DNA of 43,091 bases from an uncultured Acidimicrobiia bacterium (GCA_964548475.1 CAZJRF010000001.1:1-43091); one strand, 5' to 3'; positions 2,905 through 22,318 are shown, counted from the first letter of the stretch. Program-made: numbers and translations. Notes: generated by a model from the sequence alone, not told the origin.

Positions 2905-4311
<1,407 letters not shown>

Positions 4312-6862: not shown

Positions 6863-8047
6863 TTACGGGAAGCCGGGACCTTGGGCCGGGTCGGGAGCGG
6901 GCAGCGGCGGGGCCAGCCAGCGGAAGACGATCGGCGCGAGGGTTGAAGTGACCACCGCCAGCGTGATGATCGACGCCTTAAGGAGCTGATCGATAAAGCC
7001 CAGGCGGGCGCCTACCTCGGCGACCGCGATGATCAGGCTGAGCCGGGCGGAGAGTAGTGCTCCCGCCGCGAGCGCCTCCCGCCACGAGTGACGCCGGAGG
7101 ACGAGGGTGAGCGCCGGGATCAGCTTCACCGCCACCGCCAGGCCCAGCAGGCCGAGCATGCTGGCCACCGCCCCCGGCTCCCGCAGGGCGTCGATGTCGA
7201 AGCCGATGCCGACGTTGATGAAGAACACCGGCACCAGGAACCCGAACGCGAACCCGCTCAGCTGCTCGCCGAGCACTCCCCGGTTCCGGAACACCACCGC
7301 GAAGCCCGTGCCGGCCAGGAAGGCCCCGAGGATCCCTTCGATCCCGAAGGCGACCGCCACTCCCACGAACACCAGCATGAGGGCGAGAGTGGCCCTCATC
7401 CCGATCTCCTCGGAGTGGCCCGGCTGGAACAGGTGCTCGAACCACTCCGGCCGCCACCAGGCCAGGCGGCGCAAGGCCAGCAGCGAGCCTCCCATCACCA
7501 CGAAAAAGGCCGGGATGGCCACTGCCGCCCGGGCCGCTCCCTGATCCACGGCCAGCGCATATCCGCTGACCCCGAGGAGGGTGAGCAGATCGGCCAGCAG
7601 GGCCGAGATCAGGATGACCTGGCCGAGGGCGGTCGAGGCGCGGCGGGTAGCCCGCAGGCTGGGCACGACCAGGCCCACCGACGTGGTGGCGAGCACGAAG
7701 GTGAGGAAGACGCCGTGGCCCAGGAGTCGGGCAGAGGCGAGGGCTCCCAGCACGGTCAGGGTGAAGAGGGCTGCACTCCAGAACACGGGCCCCGCCCGGC
7801 GGCGACTGAAAGCGCGCAGGTCCAGTTCGAAGCCCGAGAGGAACATCAGCAAGAGAAATCCCAGATCGGCCAGCACATCCAAATAATGGGCCGGGTCAAT
7901 GATGTGAGTGACCGGACCGATGAGGATGCCGAATACGATCTCGAGGACGATGGCGGGCAGGCGAATGCGGGCGGCGAGAAGCGGGAGGGCGAGCGCCGCG
8001 CCCACAATCACCAGCAGCGCGAAGGTCGCCTGATGGTCGCCGCTCAT
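6863..8047 (-). CDS. cation:proton antiporter (CPA2 / Kef-type Na_H_Exchanger family)
   Basis: A 394-aa polytopic membrane protein. The N-terminus LPAIVLEIVFGILIGP and the overall hydrophobic pattern are typical of CPA2 exchangers. There is no fused KTN/RCK domain. The start lies 3 nt after the stop of the RCK gene at 8051. Confidence 0.85.
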   Translation of the reverse strand: MSGDHQATFALLVIVGAALALPLLAARIRLPAIVLEIVFGILIGPVTHIIDPAHYLDVLADLGFLLLMFLSGFELDLRAFSRRRAGPVFWSAALFTLTVLGALASARLLGHGVFLTFVLATTSVGLVVPSLRATRRASTALGQVILISALLADLLTLLGVSGYALAVDQGAARAAVAIPAFFVVMGGSLLALRRLAWWRPEWFEHLFQPGHSEEIGMRATLALMLVFVGVAVAFGIEGILGAFLAGTGFAVVFRNRGVLGEQLSGFAFGFLVPVFFINVGIGFDIDALREPGAVASMLGLLGLAVAVKLIPALTLVLRRHSWREALAAGALLSARLSLIIAVAEVGARLGFIDQLLKASIITLAVVTSTLAPIVFRWLAPPLPAPDPAQGPGFP

Positions 8048-17566: not shown

Positions 17567-18898
17567 TCACACTTTCCCGGCGACCGGCCGGCGCCGGGGC
17601 GCCAGGTCGCCGTCCCACACTGCGTAGGCCAGGGTGGCGGCGATCATCACCGCCGCGGCGGTGGCGAACATCGCCTTGTAGCCAAAATGGAGGATGACCC
17701 AGCCCAGCATGGGTGAGCCCACCAGGATCCCCGCGTCGAGAAACACAGTGAAGACGGCCATGGCCGACCCCCGCTCCTCAGGCGAGCTGCGCTCCACGAC
17801 GCCGGCGAACAAGATGGGGAAGGCATACCCGAGCCCGCCTCCGCAGAGAACCCCGGCGACGACGGTCCAGGCGGTGGAGGAGCCCAGGGCTGTGACCAGG
17901 AACCCAGCGGCGATGGCCGCCAGGGAGGGGTAGGTGACCCGGCCGCGTCCTACCCGGTCGGGGAGCCACCCCCCAAAGATCCGTATTGCCACTGCCGTGC
18001 TCGCGTAGGCCCCGAAGAAGAGGCCCACCGAGCCGATCCCGGTGGTGTCCACATAGGTGCGCATGAAGGTCCAGTAACTGGTGAGAGTGACGCACATCCA
18101 GAAGGCCATCATCCAGAGGGGGAGCAGGTCGCGCTGGATCAGGGCGCGCCGGAATCCCCCTCTTCGCCCGATCGGTACGCCGGCCGCGCCCTTCGGGCGC
18201 TGCTCCGGCAGGCGCATCGAGAGCAGCAGGCCGGCGGCGGCGAACCCGAGCGCCGCCCAGAGCACACCGTGGAATCCCCCGGCGGCGAGGACCACATCGC
18301 CCACCCAGCCGCCCACCGCGGCGGGCAGCATGCTGGAGGCGGCGAACAGGGCCAGCCCCTGCGTGCGCCGCGTCTCGGGCACCTGGTCGGCGCCGTAGGT
18401 GGAGACGGCGGTGAAGGTGAGGGCGGCCGCTACCCCGTGCAGGATCCGCACTGCCACCAGCCAGGGCCCCACCGCGGTCACGGTGAAGTAGAGGGGGATG
18501 GCGATCACGCTCAGCAGCCCGCCGGCCAGGATGGCGGGACGCCGGCCGCGGCGGTCCATGGCATTGCCCACCCCGGGCCGGATGAGTATCGAGGCCACCG
18601 CCGTGGCGGCCACGATGAGACCGATGGTCACCTCGTCGGCTCCCAGGTCGGTGAGGAAGCGGGGGAGGTGAATGAACATGAAAAACGACAGGCCTTGCAG
18701 CAGGTTCACCGACGCGGCCAGGACGAGGGGGATGGTGAGGAGCCGGACCCGCGGCGGCAGGGAGGGGTGCACGGCGCCGGAGCATATCCGTTCGTGAAGC
18801 CCCGTCTGCTGGTCCGGAGAGCACCCGGCTGAGACTCGCGAAAACCAGATAGGGCCCGCGAAAAGCAACCATCCGTCGCGCTTGACGCCGGGGTCCAT
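17567..18898 (-). CDS. MFS transporter
   Basis: The hydrophobic profile fits about 12 TM segments. MFS motif A is present (GNAMDRRGRRP). ATG 18898 follows GAAGGTAGAGAG. GTG 18772 is an alternative start that would remove 42 residues. Confidence 0.85.
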   Translation of the reverse strand: MDPGVKRDGWLLFAGPIWFSRVSAGCSPDQQTGLHERICSGAVHPSLPPRVRLLTIPLVLAASVNLLQGLSFFMFIHLPRFLTDLGADEVTIGLIVAATAVASILIRPGVGNAMDRRGRRPAILAGGLLSVIAIPLYFTVTAVGPWLVAVRILHGVAAALTFTAVSTYGADQVPETRRTQGLALFAASSMLPAAVGGWVGDVVLAAGGFHGVLWAALGFAAAGLLLSMRLPEQRPKGAAGVPIGRRGGFRRALIQRDLLPLWMMAFWMCVTLTSYWTFMRTYVDTTGIGSVGLFFGAYASTAVAIRIFGGWLPDRVGRGRVTYPSLAAIAAGFLVTALGSSTAWTVVAGVLCGGGLGYAFPILFAGVVERSSPEERGSAMAVFTVFLDAGILVGSPMLGWVILHFGYKAMFATAAAVMIAATLAYAVWDGDLAPRRRPVAGKV

Positions 18899-18956
18899 GG
18901 CTCTCTACCTTCTGTTTACCTTCTCCCCAGGTAAGCAAGAGCCCGGGGAGGTGGCA

Positions 18957-19177
18957 CCGGCGGACCGCCCCCGCAAGGGGGACGGTCGGGCGGAGACCAA
19001 GAAGCCGCCCGGTCGCCGCCGGGCCGGCGTCCGGACCTAGGAACCGGATGACGGGAAGCCGAGAGGGGTGCAAGACTCTCCCGGCGGCTCAACGCCCAGG
19101 CGTTACCGAAAGGGCGCCGAGGCGAAGGGTTGAGGCCCCGAGGGGGCTGCGGCTCAGGCCAAGGCTTCCTCGGGGTC
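18957..19177 (+). other. structured, apparently non-coding segment (three-way junction plus nested helices), strand inferred from loop chemistry
   Basis: Outer helix 18957-18963/19016-19022 encloses hairpin 18964-18986 (ACCG-CCCCC-GCAA-GGGGG-A-CGGU) and hairpin 18988-19010 (GGGCGG/CCGCCC). A 9-bp helix pairs 19135-19143 with 19168-19176. No protein-like ORF covers it. Confidence 0.25.
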
Positions 19178-19362
19178 TCGCTTTTCTGCGTTCATCTTCG
19201 GTGACTCCGCGGTCCCGTTCGTGATATTGCTCGATGGCCGCAACGACGGGGGTGCGCTGGGCGGGTCCAAGCGGCGGTTGGGGAGCCAGCGTTCTCGGGA
19301 GCCCGATCGTGCCACCCCGCGAAAACACTTTCAGAGTCGCGAAAACCCAGCAGCGCCGGCGG

Positions 19363-19391
19363 TTGACGAAGCAGAGAACACCCCCTACATT
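19363..19391 (+). promoter_or_regulatory. candidate sigma-70/SigA-type promoter: TTGACG - 17 nt - TACATT
   Basis: The -35 TTGACG (19363-19368) is followed by an exactly 17-nt spacer and the -10 TACATT (19386-19391). It sits in a locally AT-richer patch. The predicted TSS is near 19397-19399, about 330 nt upstream of ATG 19728. Confidence 0.4.
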
Positions 19392-19397
19392 GTGTGA

Positions 19398-19727
19398 TGT
19401 CGGCGGAGAGATCCACCGGCCCGCGGAGGACCGGCAACGGTTCACCGTGGCGCTCTCGTCGAGCCCCGCAAGGGGCCGCAGCGGAACCCGAAAGGGGGAC
19501 GCACCGGGGGGCCTTCGGGCCTTTCGCGACGGAGTGAACCGGCACCGGACTTCGGCCCGGAGTCGGACCGGAGTACTCGCAAGGGTGCTTCGGGACCAGG
19601 GTGCCCGCAAGGGTGCTCTGGGAGGAGCCCCGAGAGGGTGGAAGCCTCGGCAGAAGCTCTCTCGGGGTTTCTCGCGTCCGGGCCGCTTCATCCCGCAGGC
19701 GCCACCCCGGCTCTCTAGCATGGCGCC
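19398..19727 (+). ncRNA. candidate long structured 5' leader or cis-regulatory RNA upstream of the bPH-SHOCT gene, family unknown
   Basis: Seven hairpins capped by GCAA, GAAA or UUCG lie at 19429-19442, 19463-19476, 19487-19496, 19510-19521, 19545-19560, 19573-19588 and 19601-19616. A 15-bp helix pairs 19622-19636 with 19659-19673. The loops are stable tetraloops only on the plus strand. Confidence 0.35.
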
Positions 19728-20348
19728 ATGGGTTACCCGAAGCGTTTGCTCAGCGAAGGCGAAGAGATAGTCCGCGAGTTCCGGCCCCACTGGCGCATGC
19801 TGGTGGTGCCGCTCGGCTGGACGCTGCTCCTCGGGGCAGCCGTGGTCCTCACCTGGATCTACCCGCCCGACCAGGCCTGGTTCGACTGGGGTGTCACCGG
19901 CATCGCCGCGGTGGCCTGGCTGGTCCTCGGCCTCTACCCGCTGATCTCCTGGTTCTTCACCCTCTACGTGCTCACCAACGAGCGGCTGATCGCTCGCCGC
20001 GGGGTGCTGGCCCGGCACGGCCTGGAGATTCCCCTCGAGCAGATCAACGATCTGACCTTCACCCAAACGATCCTGGAGAGGGTGCTTCGCTCCGGTGATC
20101 TGTTGATCGAGTCGGCGGGGACCCAGGGACAGAGCCACTTCAGCAACATCCCCGAGCCCGAGGAGTTCCACAGCCTGCTTTACCGGGTGCGGGAGGCTCG
20201 CACCATGGCCCTGGAGGGCATCAAGCCGGTGCCGCAGGGCGACGACACGGTCTCTCGTCTGGAGCGCCTGGCCCGGCTGCAGCAAGACGGGATGATCAGC
20301 CGTCAGGAGTACGAGGAGCAGAAGAAGCAGATCCTCGGCCAGGCCTAG
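19728..20348 (+). CDS. membrane protein with bacterial PH domain (YdbS/YdbT-like, bPH_2) and C-terminal SHOCT domain
   Basis: LLSEGEEIVREFRPHW is followed by two TM helices, then YVLTNERLIARRG...INDLTFTQTILERVLRSGDLLIES (bPH). The C-terminal RLERLARLQQDGMISRQEYEEQKKQIL is SHOCT. Confidence 0.85.
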   Translation: MGYPKRLLSEGEEIVREFRPHWRMLVVPLGWTLLLGAAVVLTWIYPPDQAWFDWGVTGIAAVAWLVLGLYPLISWFFTLYVLTNERLIARRGVLARHGLEIPLEQINDLTFTQTILERVLRSGDLLIESAGTQGQSHFSNIPEPEEFHSLLYRVREARTMALEGIKPVPQGDDTVSRLERLARLQQDGMISRQEYEEQKKQILGQA

Positions 20349-20992
20349 TCGGCGCCGCTCCGTACCGTTCCCGGGAAGATGAGGTGGAGCGACGGGGGGT
20401 CGGGGGCCTCCGCCTGCTCAATCCGTCCTCCCATGGCGGCGACCAGCCGTCTGCTAAGCGGGGAGACGGGGGGAAGAGCGTTGTCCCCGGTGGTGATGGT
20501 GAAGCGGCAGTCCCCGCCCCCGCGGCGTACCACCACCCGGACCTCGCCGGCAGGGGAAGCCGCCCGTCCGAGGATTCCGGCCAGGGCCCGGCGCAGGCCG
20601 GGGGCGGGGAGGTGAAGCTCCCCCAGGTCGTCGGGCACGTCGGCGATGATGACCGCGTGGCCCCCGGTCTCCCCGGCCTGTCGGATTAGATCGGCCACCT
20701 CGGGAGGGAGCAAGTGGGCGGTGTCCCCCGGCGCGGCGGCAGCCGGCAGCTCGTCGAGCAGGCGGCGCATCTTCTGGGCCTGGGCCAGGGCCGCCTGCAG
20801 GAGAGCGGCCAGGTCCGGGTCATCGGGAGCCAGCGCGGTGCGGGCCAGGGTCTGCAGGGCGCCGAGCACGGTAGTGAGAGAGGTGCGCAGGTCGTGATCC
20901 AGGGCGGCCACGAGCTCGGAGCGCAGTGGTGCCTCACCTTCAGGCGGGGTCGGCCCTCCGGGGGTCGGGGCGGGGACGGCGAAAATCGGCAT
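20345..20992 (-). CDS. soluble HisKA-domain protein with degenerate HATPase_c domain (histidine kinase-like)
   Basis: H-box LVAALDHDLRTSLTTVLGAL with the following dimerisation helices. The catalytic region lacks the N-box Asn (AGILGRAAS) and the G1/G2 glycine boxes (TITTGDNALPPVSPLS). There is no TM or sensor domain. I place the start at ATG 20992. The track start is 21046. Confidence 0.7.
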   Translation of the reverse strand: MPIFAVPAPTPGGPTPPEGEAPLRSELVAALDHDLRTSLTTVLGALQTLARTALAPDDPDLAALLQAALAQAQKMRRLLDELPAAAAPGDTAHLLPPEVADLIRQAGETGGHAVIIADVPDDLGELHLPAPGLRRALAGILGRAASPAGEVRVVVRRGGGDCRFTITTGDNALPPVSPLSRRLVAAMGGRIEQAEAPDPPSLHLIFPGTVRSGAD

Positions 20993-21122
20993 CTCCCGTC
21001 TGCTTCGGCCCGCCCGGGCCGCGCTTGAGCCGAGATGGAAGCACACCGAAGCAAGCCGGGACGGGCTCAGCTCGAAGGGCCGCGGCGACGAAGCCCGCCC
21101 CGCGGCCGGCGAGAGTCTGTGC

Positions 21123-21370: not shown

Positions 21371-22318
21371 TTGGTGGTGCGCGACTATACCGCCGGGGGC
21401 CGGGGCAGGTCGATTCGGATACGCTCCCCAATCATCGGCAAATCACAGACCGCCGTCAATCCGGCCAACGCGGTCCTCAACTACCTGTACGCACTGCTGG
21501 AAGCCGAAGCCCGCATCGCCTGCCTGACCGTCGGCTTGGACCCCGGCGTCGGCATCCTCCACACCGACCATCGCAGCCGCGACTCCCTCGCTCTGGACCT
21601 GATCGAAGCCGTCCGCCCCGACGTTGACGCCTACCTGCTCGGGCTGCTCCGCGCCCACGTGTTCGGTGCCACCGACTTCGCCGAGACCCGCCAAGGCGCA
21701 TGCCGGGTCCTCGCCCCACTCACCCACGAGCTGGCCGCCACCACGCCCACCTGGGCGGAACGGCTCGCCCCCATCACCGAACAGGTCGCCCGGCAGCTTG
21801 CCGACACATCCCCAGCCACAATTCGCACCCCCACCCCACTCACCCAGACCAACCGCAAGGCCGCAGTGCGCCAGCAACGCCGCGGTCCCACCTCCCGCAC
21901 CCGGAGGCCGCCCACACCAGCCGGCCACTGCCAGGAGTGCGGCATACAAGTGGAGTTGCCCCAGAGGCGGTGCAGCGACTGCGACCGCGCCTACCGCACC
22001 AGCCCAGGCCATCCAAGGCTCACCCGACTCGCCGTCCTCCGCGCTGAAGGCCAAGACCCCGCCCACGGCGGTGACGCCGGACTCAGGCGCGGCCAGACCA
22101 ACGCCCATCACGTGCGAAAGGCCGCCGCCTGGGAGCAAGCCAACCCACGGCCCGACCCGGACGTGTTCCGCCGGGACATCCTCCCCGGACTCCAACACTG
22201 CAGCCCGCAGAAGATGGCCGACGCCACCGGGCTCTCCCGCCCCTACTGCGCCCTCATCCGCCAAGGCACCTACATCCCACACCCCAGACACTGGGAGGCA
22301 CTCCGCCAGATGACATGA
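21371..22318 (+). CDS. Cas1-family protein lacking the N-terminal domain, with C-terminal Zn-ribbon/HTH-like extension (possible pseudogene or Cas1-solo relic)
   Basis: AVNPANAVLNYLYALLEAEARIACLTVGLDPGVGILHTDHRSRDSLALDLIEAVRPDVD reproduces the Cas1 catalytic-domain signature (N-x-x-L-N-Y-x-Y, E, GxxH, D-L-x-E). Homology starts about 25 codons into the ORF. Roughly 150 N-terminal residues of a normal Cas1 are absent. There is no good start or SD. The tail has CQECG...CSDCD and GLSRPYCALIRQGTYIPHPRHW. Confidence 0.6.
   Translation: MVVRDYTAGGRGRSIRIRSPIIGKSQTAVNPANAVLNYLYALLEAEARIACLTVGLDPGVGILHTDHRSRDSLALDLIEAVRPDVDAYLLGLLRAHVFGATDFAETRQGACRVLAPLTHELAATTPTWAERLAPITEQVARQLADTSPATIRTPTPLTQTNRKAAVRQQRRGPTSRTRRPPTPAGHCQECGIQVELPQRRCSDCDRAYRTSPGHPRLTRLAVLRAEGQDPAHGGDAGLRRGQTNAHHVRKAAAWEQANPRPDPDVFRRDILPGLQHCSPQKMADATGLSRPYCALIRQGTYIPHPRHWEALRQMT
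21406..21420 (+). repeat. left copy of exact 15-nt direct repeat CAGGTCGATTCGGAT
   Basis: Identical 15-mer at 25390-25404. The flanking bases differ on both sides. It lies just upstream of where Cas1 homology begins. Confidence 0.5.

Follow-up and report, generated by a model that had tools for sequence, protein, structure and literature searches.

The noncoding gap at 18899–19727 of the 43,091-nt stretch of DNA analyzed here (the window), which comes from an uncultured Acidimicrobiia bacterium, most likely holds two independent plus-strand small-RNA (sRNA) genes—U1 and U2, each of about 270 nt—that are part of a multi-member RNA family, detected in one order of the Acidimicrobiia. This U1/U2 family is an undescribed family of structured sRNAs. 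To our knowledge, no regulatory RNA has been characterized in the Acidimicrobiia, which are abundant in soils, sediments, and waters and are almost uncultured, and our literature searches returned no description of sRNAs in those organisms. All the genomes involved in the present work are metagenome-assembled genomes (MAGs) of uncultured bacteria.

Extent and Coding Signal of the Gap

The 829-nt stretch 18899–19727 is flanked by a minus-strand MFS-transporter gene on one side and by a plus-strand bPH_2/SHOCT gene on the other. The ORFs that can be drawn within it have GC3/GC2 values of 0.62–0.83/0.54–0.78, the GC2 being high, versus 0.84–0.90/0.41–0.57 in the real genes of the window; by this comparison the coding signature of the genome is absent from every ORF of the gap, in agreement with a sequence-only reading of the same DNA, which had described an 829-nt gap without any credible ORF. 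The noncoding stretch is, moreover, probably larger than that reading had given. Because the alignment of the homologs of the MFS protein begins only at about 18760, continuing downward from there, and because the extension of the MFS ORF at 18773–18898 (−) has a low GC3 (0.76, versus 0.90 in the body of that ORF), the true start of the gene is probably the GTG at 18772 rather than the ATG at 18898, in which circumstance the noncoding stretch would comprise about 955 bases. The extension in question overlaps the control boxes and the promoter of U1.

Anatomy of the Two Units

Repeat finding and pairwise alignment of the units revealed that the gap consists of a tandem pair of similarly built units, each with control boxes, a promoter, an RNA body of about 270 nt, and a 3′ stem-loop. 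In unit 1 the control site (18835–18864, +; repeat family D8) contains two CGCGAAAA boxes, CTCGCGAAAA at 18835–18844 and CCCGCGAAAA at 18855–18864, separated by 20 nt from start to start. The predicted promoter that follows (18882–18911, +) comprises a −35 hexamer TTGACG at 18882–18887, an 18-nt spacer, and a −10 hexamer TACCTT at 18906–18911; this promoter, which we read from the sequence, aligns with that of unit 2 and has the same layout in relatives. The U1 RNA, of about 270 nt (18918–19187, +), would start near A18918 and is modeled with a 5′ hairpin, a multi-branch domain, and hairpins capped by GCAA and GAAA loops; its end coincides with the shared 3′ module (19128–19190, +), in which a long stem CCCCGAGGGGG/CUUCCUCGGGG, interrupted by an internal loop rich in purines, is followed by UCUCGCUUUU (62.9 bits, E = 5e-13, with the covariance model R1 built for that module).

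Downstream from an inter-unit spacer of 120 nt (19189–19308), whose length differs among relatives, the same arrangement is repeated in unit 2. There the control site (19316–19345, +) is composed of CCCGCGAAAA at 19316–19325 and GTCGCGAAAA at 19336–19345, and the promoter (19363–19391, +) of a −35 TTGACG, a 17-nt spacer, and a −10 TACATT, with a predicted start near 19397; this promoter was the sole sigma-70-like site called by a promoter scan of the region, in which scan the shuffled controls gave a mean of 0.0. The U2 RNA, of about 276 nt (19397–19672, +), has seven helical elements with GAGA, GCAA (four times), GAAA, and UUCG as their caps, and its copy of the 3′ module (19620–19682, +) reads GGAGGAG-CCCCGAGAGGG-UGGAAGC-CUCG-GCAGAAG-CUCUCUCGGGG-UUUCUCGCG (R1 74 bits, E = 6e-16). 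Two adjacent GCAA hairpins of U2, at 19565–19592 and 19593–19620 (+), constitute a 28-nt tandem duplication with 79% identity, of which both helices are kept in relatives.

The limits of the units were also visible in the conservation profile, for which we aligned four genomes of the genus and took the fraction of columns without variation. That fraction climbed sharply from 0.23 to 0.77 at 18919, remained at 0.5–0.87 up to 19188, dropped to 0.10–0.17 over 19189–19308, rose once more at the second box pair, and stayed high until 19668. A profile with such a trough between the units, and with conserved blocks whose limits agree exactly with the predicted starts and terminators, therefore indicates two transcription units, U1 at about 18918–19187 and U2 at about 19397–19672. 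That both are transcribed from the predicted starts we infer from this gene-like anatomy; in a scan of metagenome contigs every matching contig was of at least 1 kb, none being of transcript size.

Strand-Specific Hairpins and Folding Energies

We counted the stems of at least 4 bp capped by GNRA or UNCG loops on both strands of the gap and of the rest of the window. The plus strand of the gap contained seven GNRA and two UNCG loops, versus no GNRA and one UNCG loop on the minus strand; five of the plus-strand loops were GCAA, at 18973, 19434, 19468, 19579, and 19607. The rest of the window gave 0.45–0.73 GNRA and 0.32–0.38 UNCG loops per 829 nt, and the hairpins capped by GNRA or UUCG on the plus strand of the gap were enriched about 10-fold.

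The folding energies, compared with those of dinucleotide shuffles strand by strand, displayed the same bias: on the plus strand the z-scores were −4.8 for unit 1 (18918–19195) and −6.5 for unit 2 (19397–19680), none of the 200 shuffles being as stable, whereas on the minus strand the respective values were −2.8 and −0.8. The sequence-only reading had drawn attention to the plus-strand bias of the GNRA and UUCG loops, which the counts reproduce, and had proposed a comparison of the folding energies with shuffled controls, which controls the plus-strand energies beat strongly. Its proposal of a structured RNA on that strand is upheld by the folding, by the conservation, and by the covariation described below; the one refinement is that the evidence points to two separate RNA genes rather than to a single RNA.

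The Shared 3′ Module

Common to both units is a 3′ stem-loop of the form CCCCGAGRGGG ... CUyyCUCGGGG, after which comes a short run of U. Among 69 sequences of this module three apical pairs covary, the lower extension swaps A-U for G-C pairs, an A·C mismatch is retained in 42, and the internal loop reads nGA/GAn, which constitutes a tandem G·A arrangement. The module is presumed to be an intrinsic terminator. The hairpin itself is very strong; the U run, at 3–4 U (within UUUCUCGCG in U2 and UCUCGCUUUU in U1), is short—U runs are frequently short in actinobacterial terminators—for which reason termination at the hairpin is stated here as a presumption, and a terminator scan called the U1 site only.

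Conservation of Structure and Covariation

Within the genus, compensatory changes were found in 13 pairs of the U2 alignment (A2) and in 16 pairs of the U1 alignment (A3, eight sequences). As a stronger test we built covariance models from the genus-level alignments and scored only those sequences that lay outside the building set. With the U2 model (R2), 25 independent full-length homologs were recovered from other genera and families; in these, 90.1% of the pair cells were standard and double changes occurred in 88 of the 105 pairs, with a covariation score of 0.438, versus 0.144 in shuffled alignments (none of 500 reached the observed value) and at most 0.086 with slid partners. The U1 model (R3), restricted to the body without the shared 3′ module, yielded eight distinct independent homologs from the same family, in which 87.8% of the cells paired and 22 of the 62 pairs had double changes; here the score was 0.274, versus 0.154 when shuffled and at most 0.082 with slid partners. 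The alignments of the homologs were fitted to the covariance models and are in that sense biased toward the modeled structure, the margin being nevertheless still large. From these comparisons we conclude that the base pairs of both RNA bodies are under purifying selection.

The nucleotides themselves are a different matter. Across the order almost none are conserved in the U2 body, whose consensus is nearly all "n", and the only parts of U2 that are conserved in sequence are one UUCG hairpin and the 3′ module. Both comparative checks that had been suggested beforehand—conservation of the spacer in relatives and covariation—thus came out in favor of a functional structure: the DNA of the gap matched 34 of 41 related genomes, and the compensatory change was strong in both RNA bodies.

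Distribution, Synteny, and Other Family Members

Within the genus the DNA of the gap was matched over its full length; farther away the match was confined to the 3′ hairpins, usually in two or three copies located a few hundred bases apart. A pattern scan of a collection of species-representative genomes retrieved more than 118 loci, nearly all of them from MAGs labeled Acidimicrobiia or Acidimicrobiaceae; overall, the loci known at present number more than 200. A few MAGs labeled Acidobacteriota also contain the locus (L025, L040, L057, L076, L078, and L093); since the flanking genes in these are the same as in the window, at 60–70% identity, the labels or the binning of those MAGs are probably wrong. 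A search of 151 genomes of the class with the 3′-module model R1 gave scores of 50–80 bits in 35 of the 36 sampled genomes of the order to which the window belongs, across seven families, and only a few matches, with E values of 1e-4 or weaker, in other orders of the Acidimicrobiia; the mirror strand reached only about 30 bits, compared with 60–80 bits for the plus strand of the module. The module is present in one to five copies per genome, and the two copies of the hairpin pattern in the genome under study are both in the gap. The notion of a repeated or mobile element was rejected on account of that copy number.

The units are almost always situated between the operon of a PD-(D/E)XK nuclease and AdnAB and the bPH-SHOCT gene. 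A DUF488-AdnA-AdnB operon, whose transcription leads away from the units, begins with the nuclease gene; the bPH-SHOCT gene has the orientation of the units, and the MFS gene is an insert that may be missing. Elsewhere in the window, an ORF at 21371–22318 (+) matches Cas1 in its C-terminal part alone (positions 184–268 of the profile), with no CRISPR array noticed nearby.

The spacing from unit to unit ranges among relatives from about 280 to about 1400 nt, and some loci contain tandem arrays of five units with the same 3′ module (L036, 4031–5893; L124, 3866–5763; and L111, 1781–3277 together with 7711–8000). The distances from the boxes to the 3′ hairpin fall into classes of about 182, 189, 267, 300–320, 360, and 415–450 nt, a distribution that implies five or more types of body and RNA lengths of roughly 150–415 nt. 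Body sequences cannot be aligned between U1, U2, and the short type, the 3′ module being all that these have in common. The short member, of about 180 nt, is found at another locus, with a small ORF on one side, a convergent TetR gene on the other, and an MMPL gene adjoining (L033, about 2120–2305, +; also L034, L040, L043, L049, L057, L072, L095, L102, L115, and L116); its double box and 3′ module are those of the other members, and its sequence hardly varies among many MAGs. An nhmmer search for this short-type paralog found none in the genome under study, which is 86% complete.

Control Boxes and Promoters

Among the related loci that we fetched, a double box CGCGAAR-N12–16-CGCGAAR was present upstream of 122 of the 146 nonredundant units, and in those loci it was followed, without exception, after about 24 nt by TTGAC and a TAnnnT hexamer. 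In the 2.0-Mb genome under study the double box occurs exactly twice, at the promoters of U1 and U2, and the reversed control pattern does not occur at all. The boxes are 20–21 nt apart, equivalent to two helical turns, upstream of each promoter. We considered whether CGCGAAA might be a general element of stable-RNA promoters and rejected that interpretation because the boxes are absent from the rRNA and tmRNA promoters of this genome. On contig C108 (about 3400–3532, −), a single CGCGAAAT box and TTGACG-N17-TATCTT precede a hairpin RNA that, by its GGAAGGAAGC motif, looks like the SRP (4.5S) RNA.

In many loci a histidine-kinase gene recurs downstream of the sRNA array, at a distance of 0–5 kb: in distant loci it encodes a GAF-HisKA-HATPase kinase 2–5 kb downstream (e.g., L130, 4444–7458, −; L106, 4353–6080, −), and directly after bPH, at 20345–21046 (−), the window has a truncated HisKA gene that lacks a sensor domain. 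This recurring gene is a possible lead to the regulator of the CGCGAAA boxes, and nothing more.

Comparison with Known RNAs

At the gathering score, Rfam 15 gave no match in the whole window. In a permissive scan of the gap, with E values up to 10, only microRNA and riboswitch models appeared, at the level of chance (14–23 bits against thresholds of 33–112 bits), so that this library agrees with the sequence-only reading, which had recognized no signature of RNase P, tmRNA, SRP, 6S, or the cobalamin riboswitch in the gap. Some Acidimicrobiia have been reported to contain the raiA motif RNA (RF03072), which is a large structured ncRNA (PMC10861870); we therefore searched for it specifically, with no match in the gap or in the rest of the genome under study. 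The two RNAs are comparable in that raiA is likewise a free-standing ncRNA of Actinomycetota, highly structured and about 200 nt or longer, whose biochemical function is not established; they differ in that 51 nucleotides of raiA are highly conserved and its fold includes two pseudoknots, whereas the bodies of the gap RNAs are nearly without conserved nucleotides.

The closest analogy would be, in our opinion, with the co-regulated sets of sibling sRNAs that have an upstream regulator site in common, such as LhrC1–5 of Listeria under LisR, the csRNAs of Streptococcus under CiaR, Qrr1–5 of Vibrio under LuxO, and RsmX/Y/Z of Pseudomonas under GacA. As in the present family, a genome has several genes of such a set, frequently arranged in tandem; every gene has a promoter to itself, with one and the same repeated box upstream of it, and ends in a hairpin that serves, presumably in the present family too, as terminator, and the number of copies varies between relatives (1–5 here). 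Membership in such a set implies at least two separately transcribed sRNA genes per genome, and two promoter-to-terminator units, whose transcription we infer, are found in the gap; it also implies the same candidate regulator motif at every member, and that motif precedes both units in the genome under study and, in relatives, the 122 of 146 units mentioned above. The known siblings, in addition, share a functional body, in the form of a seed or of GGA motifs. No such common seed or protein-binding sequence was found among the U1, U2, and short-type bodies, which are unrelated to one another and differ in length as well as in sequence (about 150 to 415 nt), and the boxes are 20–21 nt apart here instead of 10–11. 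The Rfam scan revealed no homology to the LhrC, csRNA, Qrr, or Rsm RNAs. Given how much the U1 and U2 bodies differ, the term "sibling" fits nothing beyond the 3′ module and the promoter.

Alternative Explanations

Four other interpretations were weighed against that of two independent sRNA genes. Two of these take the gap as transcribed in one piece or together with the gene that follows. That gene, bPH-SHOCT, has a −10 hexamer of its own (19716–19730, +), TAGCAT at 19716–19721, located 7 nt before the ATG at 19728 and with no Shine-Dalgarno sequence, which element sets the boundary of the RNAs; both the hexamer and the absence of a Shine-Dalgarno sequence are conserved in six of six genomes of the genus (alignment A7). 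A −10 hexamer immediately before the ATG in the absence of a Shine-Dalgarno sequence is what leaderless mRNAs of actinobacteria usually show, and the bPH-SHOCT mRNA is accordingly predicted to be leaderless, probably with its own promoter. We therefore regard as improbable the proposal that U2 or the entire gap is a cis-acting 5′ leader of bPH-SHOCT—a riboswitch or an attenuator, with the terminator hairpin as its expression platform—even though the last hairpin usually lies 25–130 nt upstream of bPH and on the same strand. Apart from the conserved −10, U1 ends in the same module and yet is followed by another promoter; the module likewise forms the end of the short member at a different locus, where, facing a convergent TetR gene, that RNA cannot be a 5′ leader; the distance from the hairpin to bPH amounts to 370–4000 nt in some genomes; the body has almost no conserved nucleotides from which a ligand pocket could be formed; and no competing anti-terminator pairing was seen. 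If, alternatively, a single large structured RNA of about 800 nt extended across the whole gap, the dense hairpins on one strand over the entire stretch would be explained; the second complete promoter and control site in the middle of the gap, the terminator-like module that ends at 19188, a conservation of just 10–17% between the units, and the variation among relatives in the spacing and in the number of units (1–5) all speak against it and make that interpretation highly improbable.

A functional counterpart of 6S or Ms1 in this order—that is, abundant RNAs that bind the RNA polymerase and in which shape is conserved over sequence—was the second kind of explanation. Ms1 is an abundant actinobacterial RNA of about 300 nt that binds the RNA-polymerase core and whose defining features are a long hairpin opened by a central bubble and the vicinity of a HAD-hydrolase gene (PMC4191392; PMC9130861); its flanking genes code for a HAD-IB hydrolase ("inhibition of morphological differentiation") and an oxidoreductase (PMC9130861). 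The gap RNAs resemble Ms1 (MTS2823/scr3559) and 6S in their size (about 270 nt here, within the 230–300 nt of those RNAs), in being single-gene units with a strong sigma-A-type promoter and a hairpin terminator, both of them predicted in the present case, and in retaining structure rather than sequence; with Ms1 they also have in common the actinobacterial host and the possible vicinity of a PH-domain gene, "PH domain-containing protein" being one of the phrases for flanking genes by which Ms1 was sought (PMC9130861). Furthermore, and as a point in favor, 6S (RF00013) had no match at E ≤ 1 in the genome under study, which is 86% complete, the control genomes being positive. Against this interpretation, the long end-to-end helix with a central bubble that defines the shape (PMC4191392) is missing, since the minimum-free-energy and consensus folds of U1 and U2 are rows of six or seven separate hairpins plus multi-branch domains. 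The Ms1 of Streptomyces coelicolor (supplement of PMC9130861) gave no blastn match in the gap and, elsewhere in the genome, matches at the level of chance only. The neighbors, moreover, are the MFS and PD-(D/E)XK-nuclease genes and bPH_2-SHOCT, and neither a HAD-IB hydrolase nor an oxidoreductase, so that only the minor "PH" phrase of Table 3 in PMC9130861 applies. Finally, the gap RNAs have several unlike paralogs and a conserved 3′ module, which Ms1 lacks, and five or more unlike paralogs per genome would be unexpected in an RNAP mimic. A role of this kind is, in our judgment, quite unlikely. Scarcely credible, in turn, is a nonfunctional origin, by which the gap would be a GC-rich spacer, a decayed mobile element, or a set of plain terminators of the neighboring genes. 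High-GC DNA does form hairpins readily, and the minus strand of unit 1 also beats its shuffles to some extent; nonetheless, the compensatory change in most pairs across genera contradicts such an origin, the genome has no more than two copies, both at this syntenic site, and the flanking genes point away from the units or start after them, so that the hairpins terminate no protein gene.

A Proposed Mode of Action

On the interpretation that we prefer—two sRNA genes of one family—each gene would be read from its own housekeeping-type promoter, and one putative DNA-binding regulator would use the CGCGAAA boxes to switch all the members of the family together. Each transcript would fold into a row of very stable tetraloop-capped hairpins, and the shared 3′ stem-loop would stop transcription and serve, in addition, as a common handle for stability or for the binding of a protein. 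The RNAs would then act in trans as co-regulated siblings, through their shape or through a bound protein and not through a conserved antisense seed; we propose that manner of action because the bodies keep their pairs and not their sequence, the 3′ module alone being conserved as sequence. That unrelated bodies should have only the boxes and the terminal hairpin in common is a hint of a common protein partner.

A more speculative extension, which we consider rather unlikely, would be that the 3′ stem-loop with its tandem G·A loop is a protein handle within a modular system composed of a regulator site, that handle, and interchangeable scaffolds, which system could, in this order, replace global regulation of the 6S or Ms1 type or could sequester a protein in proportion to gene dosage. 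If true, such a combination of handle and scaffolds would represent a mode of RNA regulation undescribed in the Actinomycetota.

Once the family is annotated in RNA databases, gene-free gaps of about 1 kb such as this one could be labeled as what they contain instead of being filled with spurious ORFs, as exemplified by the over-extended start of the MFS gene. With a predicted promoter, a candidate operator, structures supported by covariation, and an order-wide 3′ module, the locus constitutes a well-delimited family, whose relevance to the RNA biology of the uncultured Actinomycetota we consider moderate to high.
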